A stretch of 64,000 nucleotides of DNA from Lophium mytilinum (taxonomy: Eukaryota): NCBI GenBank assembly GCA_010093605.1, contig MU004191.1:666816-730815 (forward strand). The letters run 5' to 3'. Shown here one piece after another: positions 34,691 to 49,692 of this stretch. Below the pieces are notes generated by a model. The model was not told the DNA's origin. It saw only the letters and a program-made list of their open reading frames with translations, and made no database searches. The translations under genes and the position numbers were made by a program. Position 1 is the stretch's first letter. Every line of letters begins with the position of its first letter.

Positions 34691-35593
34691 ATGTCCGGAT
34701 TTCTAGACCACAACCACGAAATCCTAACCCCACCCGCCTCCTCCATCGCCGCCTCGTCCACCATCCAATCCCCCCTCCCCCACCCCCGCGCCCTCCCCCT
34801 CAAAAGAGGCAGCACCAAGGAATCCGAATTCATCCACTACGTCGACGACACCCTCCTCCTCGTGCAGCGCCGCTGGGCCAAGCGCGCCTTCGATGACGCC
34901 CTCGCCGGCCGCGTCAAGGGCTACCACTCCTTCCGCGAGGCGGCGAAGGATCTTAATGACCTGATCGACGTGGTGTGGGTGTCTGCGACGCGTGCGTTTG
35001 CCCCCCTCCCCCTTTCATCTTCCTTGTTCCCTATTCCCTCGGGTTATTGGTGTGTTATGTGTTGTTGAGGCGAGGCTGATGTGTGTGTGATAGCGACGTT
35101 TCAGATCCCGTATTTGCTGAGTGTCGCGCTGCTGCTCACGGAGTTCCTGCCGACGTTTCCCGCGGCGCCGGGGGCGATGTTCGGGATTCTGGAGAAGCTT
35201 GACCAGGCGTTCGCGGCGTTGTTGATGGGGTGTGAGCCGGAGACTGGGGAGGCGCTGCCCGGGATAGCGGTGAGGCGGGTGAGCACGACGGAGAAGATTC
35301 GGATGAAGAGTTTGGTGGAGCGGACGAGGGTGGTTGTGGTGGAGGTGATGGCGAAGCGGTCTAGTAATACTCGTGGGGAAGAGCGGGATGGGGATGGTGA
35401 GGAGACGGATGTTGATGATGGGGCTATGGATGTGGATGCGACGGATACAGAGGGGGAGGGGATCTGGGGGGAGGATGAGGGGGATGAGGAGGAGGGGTGG
35501 GAGATGGCGACGGGGAGGGTGTATGAGCGGACGATTGGGGAGTTGGGGGAGAGTGTGGAGGGGCCGCCGATTGGGATTATTACGAATGGGTGA
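34691..35593 (+). CDS. Tfb6-like protein (TFIIH-associated subunit family)
   Basis: LPHPRALPLKRGSTKESEFIHYVD...RRWAKR, DLIDVVWVSATPTFQIPYLL (intron 34992-35093), STTEKIRMKSLVERTR. The family is recognised from memory. Confidence 0.6.
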
Positions 35594-35970
35594 GGAGGCT
35601 TGGGATATTGGGAGCCGGTTTGATCTGACGAGGACTTGGGATCATGGTTTGACGAAATGATGAAGGTCTGGTATGATTTTATCCGCTATGTGGGTTTACG
35701 AAGTTATGAAGGTTTGGTATGAATCTCTAGGTATGTGCCGATGGCTCGCTTCCAATTTCTTCAAGCCCATTCAGCCAATTTCCGGCGTGCTCTACGTTGG
35801 TGAGGTGCCATGCCAAACGCACAGCAACAAATGGCAAAGAGTTAACCCCAACAGTGTCATGTTGAGAGCGCCAGGCCCGAGCGCCATAGAAAGATGAGAG
35901 AACAGAAAGCAGGTAATCCGCGCCTAACCATGATAAGTCAGTAAATTTTTCAATCCTCCAAATGTATCTA

Positions 35971-36193
35971 AGCAGCGATGGTAACGTCGTCCATCCTGGT
36001 GGGTGTGGGCTAATACGTTTCCTGGCGCCCCGGGTTCGATTCCCGGCGGTGTCAGAGACGGAAAACATGTATTTGCACTTGATAAAAGGCTGCATGCGTT
36101 TCGTAGTGGAGGCGGCCCGATCCTGAAGTGATTCAATGGGGTCCGCTATAACGGTCAGGTTGGGGGCCGTTTGAGAGGGTAAATTCCTTTTTT
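35971..36193 (+). ncRNA. Structured putative RNA polymerase III transcript (not a canonical tRNA)
   Basis: Perfect B-box GGTTCGATTCC at 36033-36043 capping a long hairpin (36016-36060); second hairpin 36111-36171; T6 terminator 36188-36193. G-U pairs favour the + strand. The 5' end is approximate. Confidence 0.65.
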
Positions 36194-36208
36194 GCTCTTT
36201 GTTTTTTT
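36188..36208 (+). terminator. Pol III-type oligo(T) terminator
   Basis: T6 at 36188-36193 and T7 at 36202-36208, downstream of the B-box. Confidence 0.55.
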
Positions 36209-36939
36209 GATTTTTGCTCTTTATAAATAAAAGGAGAAGTGTTCTCTAGGGCGCGTAAGAAGTGCTCCATCTTTGCAGTAGGGAAAGGTACAATTTCTGC
36301 CCCAATGCCTCGGGATGAGTTCCCCTCGCCGTTCTTCCTTTTTAGAAGAAGGGGGGTAGTGCGATGATGCTATTGTGTGGTGCATCCATTGATGGTAGTA
36401 GAGATCTCGCCCAGACGCCAATTGTGAAGCCGTGGTGCTCGCTCCTTTTTCCACAGCATCACACAAAGGAAGACATTCACGTTCTACCAAAACATCTCGA
36501 AGTCCTTGACTTCTGCGCCCATGTCCACTACCGGCTCGCCTTCAGGTCCTCAACGCCGTTATGTCATGGAATTACATTTCTCGTAGAGGGCCGCGCGGCG
36601 CCGCACTTTTGGCTCTGATGACTTCAAGGTGTGATTATGAGTCTGAGGTCTTGAAGAAAGAGTAGTAAAGGGACAATTAGCGCACCTCTATAGCTTCTCT
36701 AAACTATCCCCTATATCACGATCATCACTAGTGCAAACAACGCGTCAAAATGGTTGGGTCTCCGCTGTTCGTCTCAAGGAAGGTGCGAGAGCCCCCCGGC
36801 CTCACCTTGCACTTTCATCAACAAACGCACCTCCGCGCTACTTCCACACTCCTTCAACACCACGCGAGCATCATCGTCCTTCCTTCCACTGGCCTCAGGC
36901 CCTCCTATCGTTCCTTACACGCTGTTCCCGGCCAGCATC

Positions 36940-39900
36940 ATGCCTCGCTACCGCTGCGTCAATGCGAACGTCCAACTCTGCGCCACCAGTCTCGTGGCTT
37001 CCACCACACCGCGACCGACAACACGAAAGGGCCCGGAATCAAATCGATTTGCGGATAACGCGGAGAAAGTGCTGCGCGAAGGGCGGATACTTGCGGAGAC
37101 CAAGGTCGGCGTTCCGCTGGACAATGGAGAAGATGGTGGACTCGTCCACTTCCTCGGGAAATATGGCAACATGCCATTCCTCATGGTACATGCCGGCGCT
37201 GGGCTATTCAAGGATGGACTTAGTCAAGAGATTCACGCCACACGGGCCTCAGAGCGGCGTTCAAGCAACGGCGTGAAGATGGTATCGGCGTCGCCAGCTT
37301 CACGCGACGGGGACAGCAAAGGAGAGAAAGCTAAGGACGGGCTGCAGGACGATGTTGATCCTGTGTCAATCACGACGCGCAGCAAACCATCAATTAACAG
37401 CGTTCCCACAGCTTCCTCCGACGCCGATCTAGCTCCACAAGCATTATGTCTCCAGGTCTACCTCTCCCCTGATACTTTTCTCCTCGACCCAATGGCATCT
37501 GCTAAAGAAACAAACCGCGATATCAAGATCGACGTCTTTTTCAATGGCGTATTCGCCAATTCTGGATTCATCCCTGGCCGAGACCGTTACATCTACAACC
37601 GCGGAACCAGTGCTCTCTTTTCAGGCGAGCGGTTCCACCTCTTGATGGAGCGACCCTGGATAATAGTCCCGCCTGGGCAAGAAGCTGATGGCTCGCTGCG
37701 AGGAACTATCAAGAAGTCAAAGGCCTTGAGCTGTATCACGGCGGAGGAGCGCTGGAACCAGATTGGGGCAGCGTTGTTGGCCGAGGCTGATATTCTGGGA
37801 TACGACAAGCGCGGCGACAGACCTCCGTCGGGTAATTTTCTGGAGAGCTTGGCGAATATGAAGATGCCAGGTGCGGTGGATGCTATGCAAAAACCCGCTG
37901 GGCCAAAGTTTGGCGTGATTGATGTATGTGGTCTCTCTCCACTAAATACTTGCTATGTAAGAGTTTCTAGGCTAATGCTTTTTTAGGTCATCATTTCGGT
38001 TGGACAAGGAAACAAGCATTCGCACACTGCTCCTTATATCAAAGAACCCACCCGGCCCAAAGACGACAACTTCAAGCCTCTGTCTGAAGTGCGGGAGACT
38101 GAGATAAAGGCTAAGCAGAATGTGGTGAACGAGACTGTACTAGATCCCATTCAGTCAGTTCCCCAACCAGATCTAACATTGGAGGAGGCCCAGCGTACGC
38201 AAATCTTACCCTCCAATCCCATTGTGCAACCCCCCGGTCCTCATCCAGATGAGAAAGCTTCACCACCATCGTTCCTGCGGGGATTTCTGCCCTCTTCATC
38301 ATTCAGTGACTACAACCCCAGTCCTGATGATGGCCGCCATAAGAGAGGACAAATGCGAATGGGGACATCTGGAAATAAAGGAACGGTTATCTCCCAGTCG
38401 GCTGGAGGCCCTGAATCTGCCAGAGCTCCCTCAGATCGTCGCTCTTCTCTCCCGAATCCACCACTCAATATGTCGCTTAGGTCCGGACGGAACAGTTTAG
38501 AGCCGATAGGAAGTTCTACTAACCTCATGCTCCCTCCTTTGGCTCCCGCCTCCTCTTTTGCCTCAAGCAGCCCGAACAAGCGAAGGCGTAGCTCGCTTCC
38601 TACACCGGATGGCGGAAGAAACAAACGACAGCGAGTTTCGGAGAGAATCAACATAGCTAGACCTACGGTAGAGCCACTCACTCCACTACCAGACCCAGCT
38701 ACACCCCCTTCTTCGTTGGGAATTTCTCGACGTGGCGTCTTCACTGGGGTCGGAAGTCCTACCGCAATTCCGGAGTTGACGTTACCATCGACAGCGGGGT
38801 CTGATCAAAAAGATGGGAATATTGTAATTGAGAATGATCCTTTCGAGCCGCGGATTCAATTGCCATCATCGTTCACCAACCGCTTTTCAACCCCTTCTGG
38901 ACTGCCCCTTGGCCTCTCGGGAATGCCTCTAACAAAACTGGGCGCACATACTTTCGCTCCTCGAACAAGTGTCGTCGTCCACCGCGTTGTCATCAAAGCA
39001 GGCCAGAGGACTGTAGTAGACAAATTCCTGACGACGGGATATCGTCTTCCATTGCATATGCCGAACTCGTCTCCGCCCAAACCGCCTCCGCCACCTCGTC
39101 GATCTACCCGAATCCAGAGATCGGAGACTCCAGGCTCCGGTGCTTACATGGAACCCTCGGGGAATCGTAGCCGTGCTCCACGAGGCTCAAACAACGATCC
39201 GGGAACCCCTCCTCCATCGTCTTCCCCGTTGAAAAACGCGAAAGGTCGATATTCCAAACCCCGTAAACCTGTCACCGGAGTGGTGCCGACGCCCACGCAC
39301 TTGCTGGCGCAAATTCGAGCAAGACAGAACTCTGATATCCCGCCGACTGAGTCCGCGAAGATGGACCAAGTGGTTAGGAATGTGGCGCAGCAGACGAGCC
39401 AGAATGGGTGGGGTTTAGCAGGGGCAGCTCCGCAGAGCAGTGGCTTTTCACGATATCAGACACCTCAAGGATATGGATCTACCCCGCAGCAGACAGGTCA
39501 GAACATCTTGGGAATGATGGCGCCATATGCCCAAAGCAGCGGCGGTCCAGCACTTGAAGTCCATCCAGGACGAGGGGCTACGCCGCAGCAGATGCACTCG
39601 CACGCATGGGGTTCAACGGGGCCTCATGGCCGGAACAGTAGCGATCTACCGCAACAGATTTATCAGGGACTAAGAACTTCACGACAGGGGCTAGGAGCTC
39701 CATCACATCCGAGATCAGGAGCTTCATCACATCAGGGACGAGGAGCTTCACTACAGCAGTTCGGCTCGAGCGGTGCCGACTCTGTTGATACGTCAGACCA
39801 ATTGATGACGGAAGATTCAGCGCGTCAATGGCTTGAGTCAGAGAAGCCGTCGAGACGCGACAGTGCGTTGGAAGCAGCGGGGGTAGAGAACTTACTCAAG

Positions 39901-41403
39901 CTAGCTGCACAGTCAAAGACACAGAGAGCCTTGACTCCGAATACATCGGCCTCTGGAAACCGTTCTCAGTTGCCACGCCAATTGGACGGCTCCTCTGAGG
40001 AACCGATGCTCGGAGATCTTCCTGCTGGACAGAACCCGTTGCCTCGGGTACCTATGCGAGATGGAGCAGCAAAAGTGGATCCTCTCAAGCAATCTTTAGG
40101 TTTAGAGGAGCAGAGAGGTTCCACACAGTACTTTGGTCCTCCATGGCAATTGGACGGCTCCAGTGAAGATCTCCAACGATTTCCCGAGTTGTCCAACCTG
40201 GAGGTGCCTGGAGTATCCGCGGTCGAAATCGCTGCAGCCCGAGATCTACGCAAGCGTGATGCGGAAGCAAAGATGCATAGAGACACAATTGAGGGGAATG
40301 GGATGCAAGCCTTCGTACAACCGTCTGGTTTTCAACGACGATTGGATGGGCCCGATGACGGTGATTTCTTCCAACAATTGAACCAGGCAGCAGGGCTTCC
40401 ATTGCAGGAATCTGGTCAGCAATGGGGTACCCTCATACCACGATTGCCTCCACCTTTTGATCCTCGTTTCGAGCAGGAATCAAACCAAGCGATGCGCACT
40501 TCTCTCCAACAACCCAACCAAGGAGGGAGTGGTTTTCTGCAACAATCAGGTCTGTCTGTTGATATGCGTGTCATGCAACCCGCAAACCAGACGTTACAGC
40601 AACCCAATCAGAGACAAAAAATATCGCCCAGGCAGGTAAGTGGCAGTACCAGGGTTACTCCTCAACCAAATGTCCCAAGTCTGGAACACGGGAATGTGCA
40701 GACCGAAGCTAGGGCTGGTGGGATGCGCCGAATGAGGAATTCTCATGCCCAAGACACCATCCAAGTCAAACCCAGGATCAGCAGCGCTCCAGATCCAATG
40801 GTCGATGGCCCAACGCTTCTTCCTAGCCCAGTGATCAAGACGCCAAGTTCAGTACCTAGCCGTTTGATTCAGAAAGCCCGCGAATCGCTTGGCAGTGACG
40901 ACTCCCCACTGTCGTCAGGTCCATCGGATGTCTCAACGCCGAGGGACATGCAATTCACCCCTACTAGACAGTTGAACGGGAGGGAGAATCAGAAAGAGAG
41001 TGTGAGTACTGGTGCCAATCTACCTAAGCTGCAAATACAGCCGCACTCGCCGCTCTCATCAGCTCCATCGAACCCCACGACACCCCAGGACATGGGCTTT
41101 GAAATTGCCGCACCTGTGACAGGGACGGAAGAGGAGGTAGAAAATGAAAATACCGAGAATTTCAGACCGCTAACACCTCAGGCACAGGCCTCGACTCCGG
41201 GAAACAGCGTTCAATCCATCACTGACCACGCGCCTTTTGACCCAGCGTTGCTGAGCGAGGACTGCGTTATCACTTATGCCAAAAAGGGTCCGTGGACCGT
41301 ACCGCCGACGGCTGGAGAGGCAGTCAGACAGGTGAGAGGTGCGAAAGGCGGAGTCTTTCGGGAGGAGGAGGTTGTGTTTGGGGTGAGGTTTCTTTTAGGT
41401 TGA
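36940..41403 (+). CDS. Large hypothetical protein with globular N- and C-terminal segments flanking a long disordered region
   Basis: ORFs 36754-37986 and 38089-41403 join via a GTATGT..CTAAT..TAG intron (~37924-37986); DIKIDVFFNG and C-terminal EDCVITYA...FREEEVVFGVRFL segments. The start codon is uncertain. Confidence 0.75.
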
Positions 41404-46877: not shown

Positions 46878-49692
46878 TTAAGCTTCATCCAGATCGTCGT
46901 TGCCTGACACATTAAATTTCTTCCGTCCCGTGCCAGTGAGTTTTTGCAGCGCAACTTTGTTGACTTGCGAGCCAACTTTCTTCTGCATCTTTTCAAGCTC
47001 TGCCTCTGCATCCTCGCCTTCTTCTTCTGCGTAATCAAGCACAAGGCGGCGACCGAGGAGATGCGTATTTCGTAGAGCATCAAGACAGTTTTCCGCTTCT
47101 CGTGGGGTGCTGAACTGAGCAAAGGCGAAACCTCTCGTTCGATTATCGAGCCGTTTCGGCACCCGGACTGACCGGACTTGGCCATACGTGGCGAGCAGGG
47201 CCCGAACATCCTTTTTGTCAGCTTCGAATGGCAAGTTCTTGATAACAATCTTAGTCTGCTTCCCCGAGCCTTTCTTAGACTTGTCCTCTTTGCGACGCTC
47301 TTCTGCGGCATCGTGTCCTTTGTGTGAGGCTCGAACAAGCAAGTTGTGATCGTCGAGAAGGTAATCATTCATCGCCACCTGTGCCGCTGCTGCTTGATCT
47401 TTGGTGCGGAACTCCAAGAAACCATATCCCATACTCAAGACTCCACGCTTAGGGTCGACTTTGGTTTTGACTTTGGCAGACAAGAATCCGTCCAAAGCAG
47501 AAAACGCTTCTGTGAGACGCTCGCTCGTGGTAGAGAAGTTTAGATTTCGCACAAAGAGCGTGGAGGTGTCGGCCGCTTCGGGCGATGGGTCTTCCTTTTG
47601 GAGCAAGTCAGTGGCAGACAATTTACTTGGCTGTCCCTTCTTGGAATCGACGGTCGCAGCCTGGATTTCGGTTGTAGCACCGAGCGGAGAAGGTGGCTTA
47701 GAGAAAAGGTCCTTTGGCGCTTTTTCGAGGAACAGGATTGAGTCCTTCACCTTGCGGTAGGAAAGTTTCCCAAACGCCTTTTTTGCGTCCGGGGCATTCA
47801 TGTACTCAACAATAGCGAGCGTACCGCTTGGAGGTAGCATAAACCTCGTTATAAGACCATACTCGGCGAACAGCTCTCGTATCTGAGTCCCACTGCCGTA
47901 TGGGAAATTCTTTATGAGGATAGCCTTATCTCCTCTCTCTCGCTTCTTGAAGGAATCCAAGTCAATTCCGTTCTCAGTGAAGTACGCTCTGGTTTCTGAA
48001 ATGAGGTGGGTTTCGGCTTGAGCCTGCTTCACACCAGCATCGGACGAAGTAGGGTCAAGCAGATCAGATTTTCGAACACCCAGCCGGTCGGCAATAGAAG
48101 AAAGAACGGAATCTTGCTGCGACGTATTAGCTTCTGTTCTAGAATACAATATAGTACACGTACGTTCATGTACAGCGAATTCCATTGAAATGTTTGCCTA
48201 TCTGCAGAAGCCTTTTTTTGTATCTTTTTTTGCATTTTGAGTGGAAGTTTTGAGATTTCAAACTCATCTAACTTCGTTTCTCGCTTTGCCTCGGCAGGCA
48301 GTACATGAAGTAAGCGACCCTGGAAAGTCTTCTTGTCTTTCTCGCGATAGGCTGCGACGGCATCTTCGGGATTGGTGTATTGGACGTATGCAAATCCTTT
48401 CCCTTGGCCCGTGGACGCGACCACCGGGACGTGGACCTGATCAACAGCTGTCAGTGACTTCTTTCTGGATTAGACATGAGTGTTTCTGCAGGTTCGGTGG
48501 GCCTTTGGTTTCAGAATACGAGACGCATCTACTAAAATAGTCTCCCTGGTAACATCATCTGCAGTGCATAAGATGTCCCTATCAGGATGTTCATCATATA
48601 AGGCGATAAAAAGAAAATTAGAGCCGCTCTCACCTCTCCAATCTCCCCAAAGGGCGCGAAATCCTTTCGAATTTCTTCTTCGAGATTTTCGCCGCTGGGT
48701 AATTGTATAGCGTATCCCAGATTTCGTAGGTACAGCCGACCGGTGGATAGTATTTTGGTTTCATTCGCATCTTCCCCGTCGTCTTCGTTGGCTCCATTCT
48801 GCTCCTCTGTGACATCGGCAGCGGTGCTTTCGATAACCTCGACCACATCAGGTTGCTGTGCTGGTACTATCGCGTCGGCAGGTCTCGCAGCTTCATTTCC
48901 ATTGTCTTCGAGATCCAGTAGCCTCTTTTTGCGTGAACGAAGCCAGTCGGCATCGGAGACCGGTCCGTCTGGCATCACCCGTACAGGCGCCTCATGAGCA
49001 GGTTGATGCTCTAAACTCTCATCGTGTTCATCTCGTTGGGACTTCCTGATGGCTACCGGATTGCCTGTGTTTTTCTCAGGCAGCTCTACGGACGCAGAGT
49101 TTTTCGACGTCTTCGCCACGACTTGATACTCGTCGTCGCTTTCGGCCGCATCGGCGGCCGGAAGCACTTCGGCGGGTGAGAATGCCTGTTCGACGGTCCT
49201 CTTCTTCAGTTTTGAAGCCGGCTGCATGGCATCCAGAAACTCTTCGAGCTTTGGGTCGGACGGCTGCTGCTGGACCTCTTGACCAGGTCTCTTGCGCTTC
49301 AAGGCATTCTCAATTGGCGCACCATTGCTCCCACTGAGCTTTGGTTGGAATGGGCCATCGTTTGCAGACCGACCTTTTGATTTCGCCGGCGGTTGATCGG
49401 AGATCTGTTGGAGAAAATTTCGTATTAGCTCTAGTTTGGGCTAGAAACACTGGAGGGTGCTCACAGGACGAGCGATCTCGACGTACAGCCTGGACGTCCT
49501 GAGGAACGCCTTGTTGAAGTATTTGACAGCTTTGGCGGCGTCTTCTGGGGATTTGTAGCCCACATAGCCAATCTGGCGGTGGGGCAGCACCTTTGCGTCG
49601 GTGATGGGCTGCTGGGACGAGAAGTAGCGTCTGAACTCGTCCTCCGTAATGGCGGGCGGGAGGCCTCGAACGAAGATGCGCGACGAGGCCAT
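46878..49692 (-). CDS. MRD1: Multiple-RRM ribosome biogenesis factor Mrd1 (RBM19)
   Basis: SRIFVRGLPP...IGYVGYKS, GRLYLRNL, GKGFAYVQY, FQGRLLHVLPA, WNSLYMN, TLFVRNLNFST, SMGYGFLEF, RGFAFAQF, THLLGRRLVLDYA; three introns. Confidence 0.93.
48501..48604 (-). ncRNA. Intronic box C/D snoRNA-like element in MRD1 intron 2
   Basis: C box ATGATGA (48591-48597), D box CTGA (48511-48514) and terminal stem GCCTT/AAGGC, inside an unusually long 197-nt intron (48437-48633). Confidence 0.65.

Follow-up and report, generated by a model that had tools for sequence, protein, structure and literature searches.

The question raised by this locus is whether a strongly folded, tRNA-like sequence located behind the TFB6 gene represents an RNA gene standing on its own, as the first-pass annotation had proposed, or a member of a family spread over the genome. 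Within the window (the whole 64-kb stretch of DNA analysed here) no second copy of the element was found; the answer comes from other contigs of the same organism, from the distribution of differences between the copies, and from the arrangement of the Pol III-type signals inside the repeated unit. With a probability of approximately 0.6, we assign the element to a family of “SINE-like” Pol III units that are related to tRNA and present in low copy number.

The repetition is directly observed in X2, a DNA run obtained from the same organism and possibly the one the window derives from; its records 8 and 14 show 0 differences from the window. Besides these, at least five contigs of this run match parts of 35907–36192 at approximately 82–91%, have single-copy depth and are unlike the window in their flanks, i.e., they are dispersed copies of the kind expected for a SINE; the five contigs are among the matches listed, and there are 14 further pieces besides. 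The depth per copy contig is 163–278 versus 164–175 for the single-copy flanks, and the binned depth rises from 164 to 928–1013 in the two bins that cover 36005–36218. The summed depth amounts to 1571 at position 36100 and 1484 at 36141, which equals approximately nine single-copy equivalents, and the assembly graph of X2 is broken at 36119–36127. About 6–9 copies are detectable at a likeness of 80% or more. Since the copies are dispersed, the element is not a stand-alone or unique gene, and the first proposal has to be given up in this respect; it had itself named many dispersed copies (a SINE) as the finding that would overturn it, and the X2 contigs and depths show dispersed copies.

The repeated unit is visible over the extent given in Table 1. 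Its left limit is the alignment start of record 9, whose flank is unlike the window, and its right limit is the end of similarity in the 182-nt contigs of two runs labelled as another organism (X4 and X5, considered below), which are unlike the window beyond this point. Scans for exact patterns gave no match to the 21-mer of the core or to the 26-mer of the B-box block in metagenome contigs, to the core 21-mer or a 23-mer in genome contigs, or to the core 21-mer in viral contigs, the core 21-mer spanning 36141, a position that varies between the copies.

Table 1. Coordinates of the element, its parts, the neighbouring gene and the copies in run X2 (positions are those of the window; events are counted against record 9).
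Feature	Position in the window	Strand	Description
TFB6 gene (TFIIH subunit)	34691–35593	+	Exon 1 to 34991, intron 34992–35093 (102 nt), stop codon 35591–93
GT-AG intron of 124 nt (GTATGT...ACAG)	35731–35854	+	X1 joint 35728 to 35853 (cut +2); not in X2
Repeated unit, visible extent ~300 bp	35907–36205	+	Limits are alignment ends, not proven termini
Left part	35932–36012		15/81 events/nt vs record 9 (19%)
A-box-like TGGTGGGTGTGG, weak	35997–36008	+	3 of 4 invariant positions of TNGNNNANNNG kept
B-box block	36013–36046		2/34 events/nt vs record 9 (6%)
Long hairpin	36016–36060	+	T-arm, 8-bp stem with one bulged C, extension of 5–6 bp
Perfect tRNA-type T-arm	36030–36046	+	CCGGG-TTCGATT-CCCGG; 5-bp stem, loop TTCGATT
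B-box core GGTTCGATTCC	36033–36043	+	Sequence reading
Variable linker	36047–36099	+	13/53 events/nt vs record 9 (25%)
Conserved 3' core, most repeated part	36100–36167	+	3/68 events/nt vs record 9 (4%)
Nested stems inside the 3' core	36111–18/36164–71 (GGCGGCCC at 36111–18) and 36122–26/36155–59 (CCTGA/TCAGG)	+	In MFE
T-runs, Pol III terminator-like	T6 36188–93, T7 36202–08, T5 36211–15	+	Inside a 22-nt tandem duplication
Copy, record 9 (contig of 15,138 nt)	35907–36192		34 other letters, 19 gap letters
Copy, record 10 (contig of 25,435 nt)	36013–36167		21 other letters, 4 gap letters
Copy, record 11 (contig of 191 nt)	36013–36127		10 other letters, 0 gaps
Copy, record 12 (contig of 1,573 nt)	36067–36170		11 other letters, 1 gap letter
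Copy, record 13 (contig of 9,667 nt)	36104–36178		7 other letters, 0 gaps

The most pronounced structural feature of the unit is the long hairpin capped by the T-arm, whose B-box core, as an 11-mer, occurs exactly once on both strands of the window. In the stem of this hairpin, CTGGCGCC (36022–29) is paired with GGTGTCAG (36048–55), the bulged base is C36047, and the extension is formed by CGTTT and AGACG. The hairpin is both the MFE and the centroid structure (−29.5 kcal/mol, z −4.67, 0 of 200 shuffles being as stable), and its helix is also present in the fold of the 238-nt stretch. Direct reading and this stability bear out the earlier description of a perfect B-box/T-loop placed on top of a long stem, and the two pairings given for it, the stem at 36022–29 and CGTTT/AGACG, both belong to the MFE hairpin; the further extensions then considered possible (AATACG/TGTATT and GGGTGTG/TGCACTT) are absent from the MFE. 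The second stem domain of that description is retained in its outer stems, which are in the MFE, and lost in its inner CCG/CGG hairpin, this inner part folding otherwise; the stability of the domain is unremarkable (z −1.74). When the 238-nt stretch was compared with shuffles, z was −3.0 for the + strand and 0.03 for the − strand, in agreement with the + strand polarity assigned to the element before. No Pfam match was found for the three ORFs that overlap the element. The data support a non-coding element whose folding is specific to the + strand.

The Pol III-type signals of the unit are unequal in quality. The T-runs are located at its right end, where TTTTTGCTCTTT forms a perfect 12-nt direct repeat (copies 22 nt apart, 36189–36222, +) spanning them; there is no T4 run within 35951–36187 (237 nt), and a T5 run is present upstream at 35946–50. 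The T6 and T7 terminators claimed at first are thereby found again, with the right polarity. The A box is much less pronounced: the minimal motif TNGNNNANNNG, taken from PMC11724288, was not found in 35930–36030, and the best match to the fuller A-box consensus keeps 6 of the 9 specified positions. The A-box-like site noticed earlier at 35997 is therefore present but weak, with three of four invariant positions, and the AT-rich upstream DNA mentioned with it exists locally (35936–70, ~29% GC) and not in 200-nt windows (~0.49 GC). Judging from such sequence signals, the element may be transcribed by Pol III.

Divergence between the copies is distributed unevenly along the unit (Table 1). Only record 9 can be assessed over the whole element because differences within ~27 nt of the alignment ends go unlisted, and the conservation argument rests mainly on this one copy. 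The conserved blocks differ from the rest with a Fisher p of 5e-4, for blocks chosen post hoc, and the linker also carries most of the listed changes of records 10–12. No listed change of record 9 falls into the B-box core; the arm is changed only at 36030 and 36032, resulting in one U-G pair and one A-C mismatch (the latter at 36032). Changes beside the T-arm (36047–36050, 36056 and 36058) vary from copy to copy, and those in the lower stem of record 9 break pairs and are uncompensated (36058 becomes U-U). The core is changed in record 9 at 36134, 36141 and 36150, all three positions being unpaired in the stems of the first-pass annotation, which has a chance probability of ~0.1; at 36150 the present copy is the odd one, with G in five other contigs. 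The loose end of record 12 keeps TCGATTCCC, the 3' half of the T-loop, at the matching place, and in two of the three right-hand loose-end consensuses of other copies a T5 run occurs at the place where this copy has T6. The listed changes of record 9 comprise 12 transitions and 12 transversions, so the divergence is old and RIP-type changes are not dominant.

This block-wise conservation is to be expected where a promoter and a 3' domain were indispensable to the source copies. We propose that four parts make up the unit: a tRNA-derived T-arm that would also serve as the perfect B box for Pol III, a linker of poor conservation, a structured 3' core and a T-run. TFIIIC would bind the B box, Pol III would start some tens of bases upstream of it and stop at the T-runs, and the RNA, or the unit as DNA, would at some earlier time have given rise to copies at new sites. 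Of the two conserved blocks, the source copies would then have needed one as the promoter and the other as a 3' recognition or structure domain. The present copy would have landed at least 315 bp behind the stop codon of TFB6 and would now be situated inside the longer + strand transcripts running from this gene. It is the transcription by Pol III, the retroposition and the direction of copying that we infer here.

The closest parallel is provided by the tRNA-related SINEs of fungi, which, according to PMC5063351, include MgSINE, Foxy and nrs1 besides AfuSINE2 of Aspergillus fumigatus. As characterised in the same source, AfuSINE2 is 140–493 bp long, is present in 1–5 copies, has an A box more degenerate than its B box and does not fold into a cloverleaf, and its member AfuSINE2-1a carries GGTTCGATTCC. 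Our element is likewise short (~300 bp), non-coding and low-copy, with GGTTCGATTCC as the B box, and it shares with AfuSINE2 the more degenerate A box, the head that is not a cloverleaf, the location in a gene-rich region and the coverage by transcripts (PMC5063351). No similarity to the element was seen in the 13 AfuSINE sequences printed there, compared by eye only.

There are also differences from the fungal SINEs: no target-site duplication and no A/T-rich or trinucleotide tail was found, the end is a T-run, and the similarity to one copy reaches upstream of the tRNA-like part. The flanks share one 7-mer and two 6-mers, a weak test since the true ends are uncertain; the 7-mer, the best flank repeat, is expected ~0.7 times by chance and lies inside the homologous region. 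The 3' end is T-rich and lacks, on the + strand, an A-rich or simple-repeat tail; ending in T-runs is more gene-like than SINE-like. The tRNA-related part lies ~85–125 nt into the unit that record 9 delimits, not at its 5' end, and upstream of the start expected for a B-box-driven transcript record 9 remains similar for another ~80 nt, which fits DNA-level duplication or a longer unit. Other kinds of repeats were considered as well. A MITE was rejected, as terminal inverted repeats were not found (the best arms are 70–73% complementary), and so was an LTR primer-binding site on the − strand, where the complement does not start with TGG and no TG...CA ends were seen on reading.

The assignment to a SINE-like family removes the locus from the candidates for new Pol III RNA genes of single copy and makes it a more ordinary low-copy tRNA-related repeat. 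In filamentous fungi, the cataloguing of SINE-like elements is poor, and the selective retention of the B box and the structured 3' core gives a handle on the parts which such units need.

The missing duplication and A-rich tail, the T-run end and the ~80 nt of upstream similarity together keep alive the explanation that survives best after the SINE-like one, namely functional Pol III genes that form a small family of several copies, each copy having its own T-run terminator and producing a structured RNA of ~200–240 nt. According to it, the B box would lie in the hairpin capped by the T-arm, and the conserved 3' core would be the working part. In favour of such genes one can mention that the linker varies freely between two retained blocks, the B-box block and the core, that T-runs form part of the unit here and in two of three other visible copies, that all three core changes of record 9 are unpaired in the stems proposed at first, and that the fold is specific to the + strand (z −3.0). 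However, the copies differ by 9–18% within one genome, the stems beside the T-arm are broken in record 9 without compensation (36032 A-C, 36058 U-U), and the chance probability of ~0.1 reduces the weight of the three loop changes.

The nearly constant 3' core (36100–36170) is relevant to the same explanation because 36090–36205 recurs with only 2 differences in 116 nt in the runs labelled as another organism (organism C). These runs, X4 and X5, come from one study, and each contains a 182-nt contig of depth ~3 that matches only 36090/36092–36205 and is then unlike the window, the region compared being 3.2 kb; X6 and X7, from the same study, have the same small share of words. The missing cover of X4 and X5 elsewhere is not read as absence. 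The match may reflect a core that is very well conserved in another species. It may also stem from traces of the fungus studied here, or of a close one, of which only multi-copy sequence assembled, and the depth of ~3 counts against the functional genes in this respect. We regard a family of working genes as rather unlikely on balance, and it is somewhat less likely still that the family represents an undescribed structured RNA of ~200–240 nt in ascomycetes with its B box in a hairpin resembling a tRNA minihelix.

Another explanation concerns the DNA and not the RNA. At ETC sites, TFIIIC is bound but TFIIIB and Pol III are not; such sites are known in several eukaryotes, as reported in PMC11724288, and the element might be a TFIIIC-binding sequence of this type, the repeat spreading B boxes that would serve as protein-binding or boundary sites; here, the boundary would be set between TFB6 and the next + strand gene. 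Like the yeast ETC sites described there, the element is intergenic, lying between Pol II genes, and its strong B box stands alone, with no convincing A box to accompany it; its B-box core is kept even in the diverged record 9. The yeast ETC sites are short DNA motifs, whereas the B box of the element is embedded in a 300-bp repeat with a conserved structured body and T-runs; an ETC-like role leaves the better-conserved 3' core, the strand-specific RNA fold and the T-runs unexplained. Read in this way from its signals, the element would be an improbable case of an ETC-like site. The SINE-like unit, in turn, also brings a strong potential TFIIIC site and T-runs into a transcribed region just behind the gene of a general transcription factor, where the element could affect how 3' ends are formed or could serve as a boundary.

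The transcripts of this region were analysed in run X1. The gene in front of the element is a TFB6 homologue, Pfam PF17110 being matched by exon 2 with 138.2 bits and by the end of exon 1 with 26 bits. The intron of this gene has been spliced out of an RNA contig of X1 and is retained in X2. The stop codon of TFB6 is followed, after ~140 nt, by the other intron of Table 1, and both its spliced and unspliced forms occur in X1; it belongs either to the 3' UTR or to a separate downstream non-coding transcript. Run X1 was taken as RNA because these two GT-AG joints are absent from X2. One of its contigs (record 4, 35853–36127) crosses the hairpin and the supposed Pol III start near 35985, and another (36119–36722) crosses all three T-runs. 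Since the putative start and the T-runs are thus bridged, the element lies within a longer RNA that runs on from TFB6. The + strand of this transcript is fixed up to 35854 by the GT-AG intron and is presumed farther downstream.

The X1 contigs cannot show the starts, ends or levels of RNAs, and their depths (326.7 at 35580–35730, 146.2 at 35853–36127 and 19.5 from 36119) are means that cannot rank the parts of a gene; they would fit an ending of most TFB6 transcripts before or inside the element. At 36150, the depth is 19.6 for this copy versus 66.8 summed over four other contigs. The absence of an abundant family RNA would fit the X1 depths too; being means, these depths are not counted as evidence for either reading.

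Several other features were noticed around the gene. The nearest protein clusters are those of ascomycetes. A GH16 gene is located farther upstream of TFB6, and on the other side there are two long open frames in 36703–41400 (+), 427 and 1138 aa from stop to stop, which have no Pfam domain and are covered by an X1 RNA contig from 36740 onward. A B-box-like site with one mismatch, GGTTTGATTCC, is situated inside a downstream ORF (40476–40486, −) and is the only one-mismatch site of the window. Together with the element this makes two B-box matches with no more than one mismatch, a number typical of chance (shuffle mean 1.37, two or more in 42 of 100 shuffles).

The bridging RNA contigs bear on a further explanation, in which the element would be a cis-acting, tRNA-like part of the TFB6 transcript, a minihelix mimic cut by RNase P or RNase Z in the manner of the mascRNA of MALAT1, which would make or regulate the 3' end of the mRNA. 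The contigs run from the 3' region of TFB6 across the hairpin (record 4), and the top match below threshold in a sensitive Rfam scan of 35500–36700 is mascRNA-menRNA (23.8 bits, E 0.039, 35992–36053). With mascRNA/MEN-beta (RF01684) the element shares a tRNA-like module with a canonical T-arm and a reduced anticodon region, located within a longer Pol II transcript. However, RF01684 is a vertebrate family with a gathering score of 42.5, far above the score obtained, and the element is one long hairpin, not a cloverleaf; the acceptor-like pairing of the alignment contains two non-standard pairs out of seven. A helix longer than the 12-bp minihelix disfavours RNase P and RNase Z, and the helix of the element extends 5–6 bp past this length. 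In addition, the element is repeated at other loci, and contigs cannot show the RNA ends that cutting would produce. By analogy with MALAT1 such a role can be imagined, and we consider it very improbable.

The similarity to tRNA genes is restricted to one arm. ARAGORN with default settings found no tRNA in the window, and its scan of the region was likewise empty when introns were permitted or the setting was -ps90. At relaxed settings (-ps80/-ps85) its calls are inconsistent, Pro(ggg) at 35971–36054 or Val(tac) at 35982–36055, and in controls where the T-arm was kept and the upstream 129 nt were shuffled, 143 of 400 sequences still gave a call at -ps80, and 78 of 400 did so at -ps85. The relaxed calls are thus at chance level, and the tRNA-likeness is confined to the T-arm and the adjoining stem. 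In the sensitive scan several Rfam models align the T-arm alone, and the tRNA model (RF00005) scored below the 10.9-bit match of a tmRNA T-arm. In comparison with the tRNA genes represented by RF00005 and the ARAGORN model, the T-arm and its loop are the same in form as the canonical ones, whereas a D arm, an anticodon arm or an acceptor stem is not present beyond chance. An intron-split tRNA was rejected: GTGGGT occurs at 35999 and CTAAT at 36010, but there is no AG between 36015 and 36054, and when introns were allowed, ARAGORN returned nothing beyond a sub-threshold call of 199 nt at -ps80. The view that the element is not a tRNA, expressed from the beginning, agrees with the default ARAGORN result and with a cloverleaf not exceeding chance.

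A tRNA gene decayed at its original site, i.e., a single-locus pseudogene, is hardly credible: the perfect T-arm and the relaxed Pro(ggg) or Val(tac) calls would suit it, but these calls are at the control level, the tRNA model stays below 10.9 bits, and the occurrence at other loci of a repeated unit including ~150 nt of non-tRNA body contradicts it.

Catalogued RNA families did not account for the element either. At gathering scores, Rfam 15 contains no family matching it, Afu_*, SRP, RNase P/MRP, 5S and U6 included, and the body (36056–36215), scanned with E values up to 10, had 0 matches. The earlier statement that hallmarks of SRP, U6, RNase P/MRP and 5S are absent stands in view of this result, and the suggestion of an Aspergillus Afu sRNA family found no counterpart at the element. 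The only gathering-level Rfam match of the window is a C/D-box snoRNA, Afu_335, located at 48509–48601 on the − strand with 84.9 bits versus a gathering score of 50.
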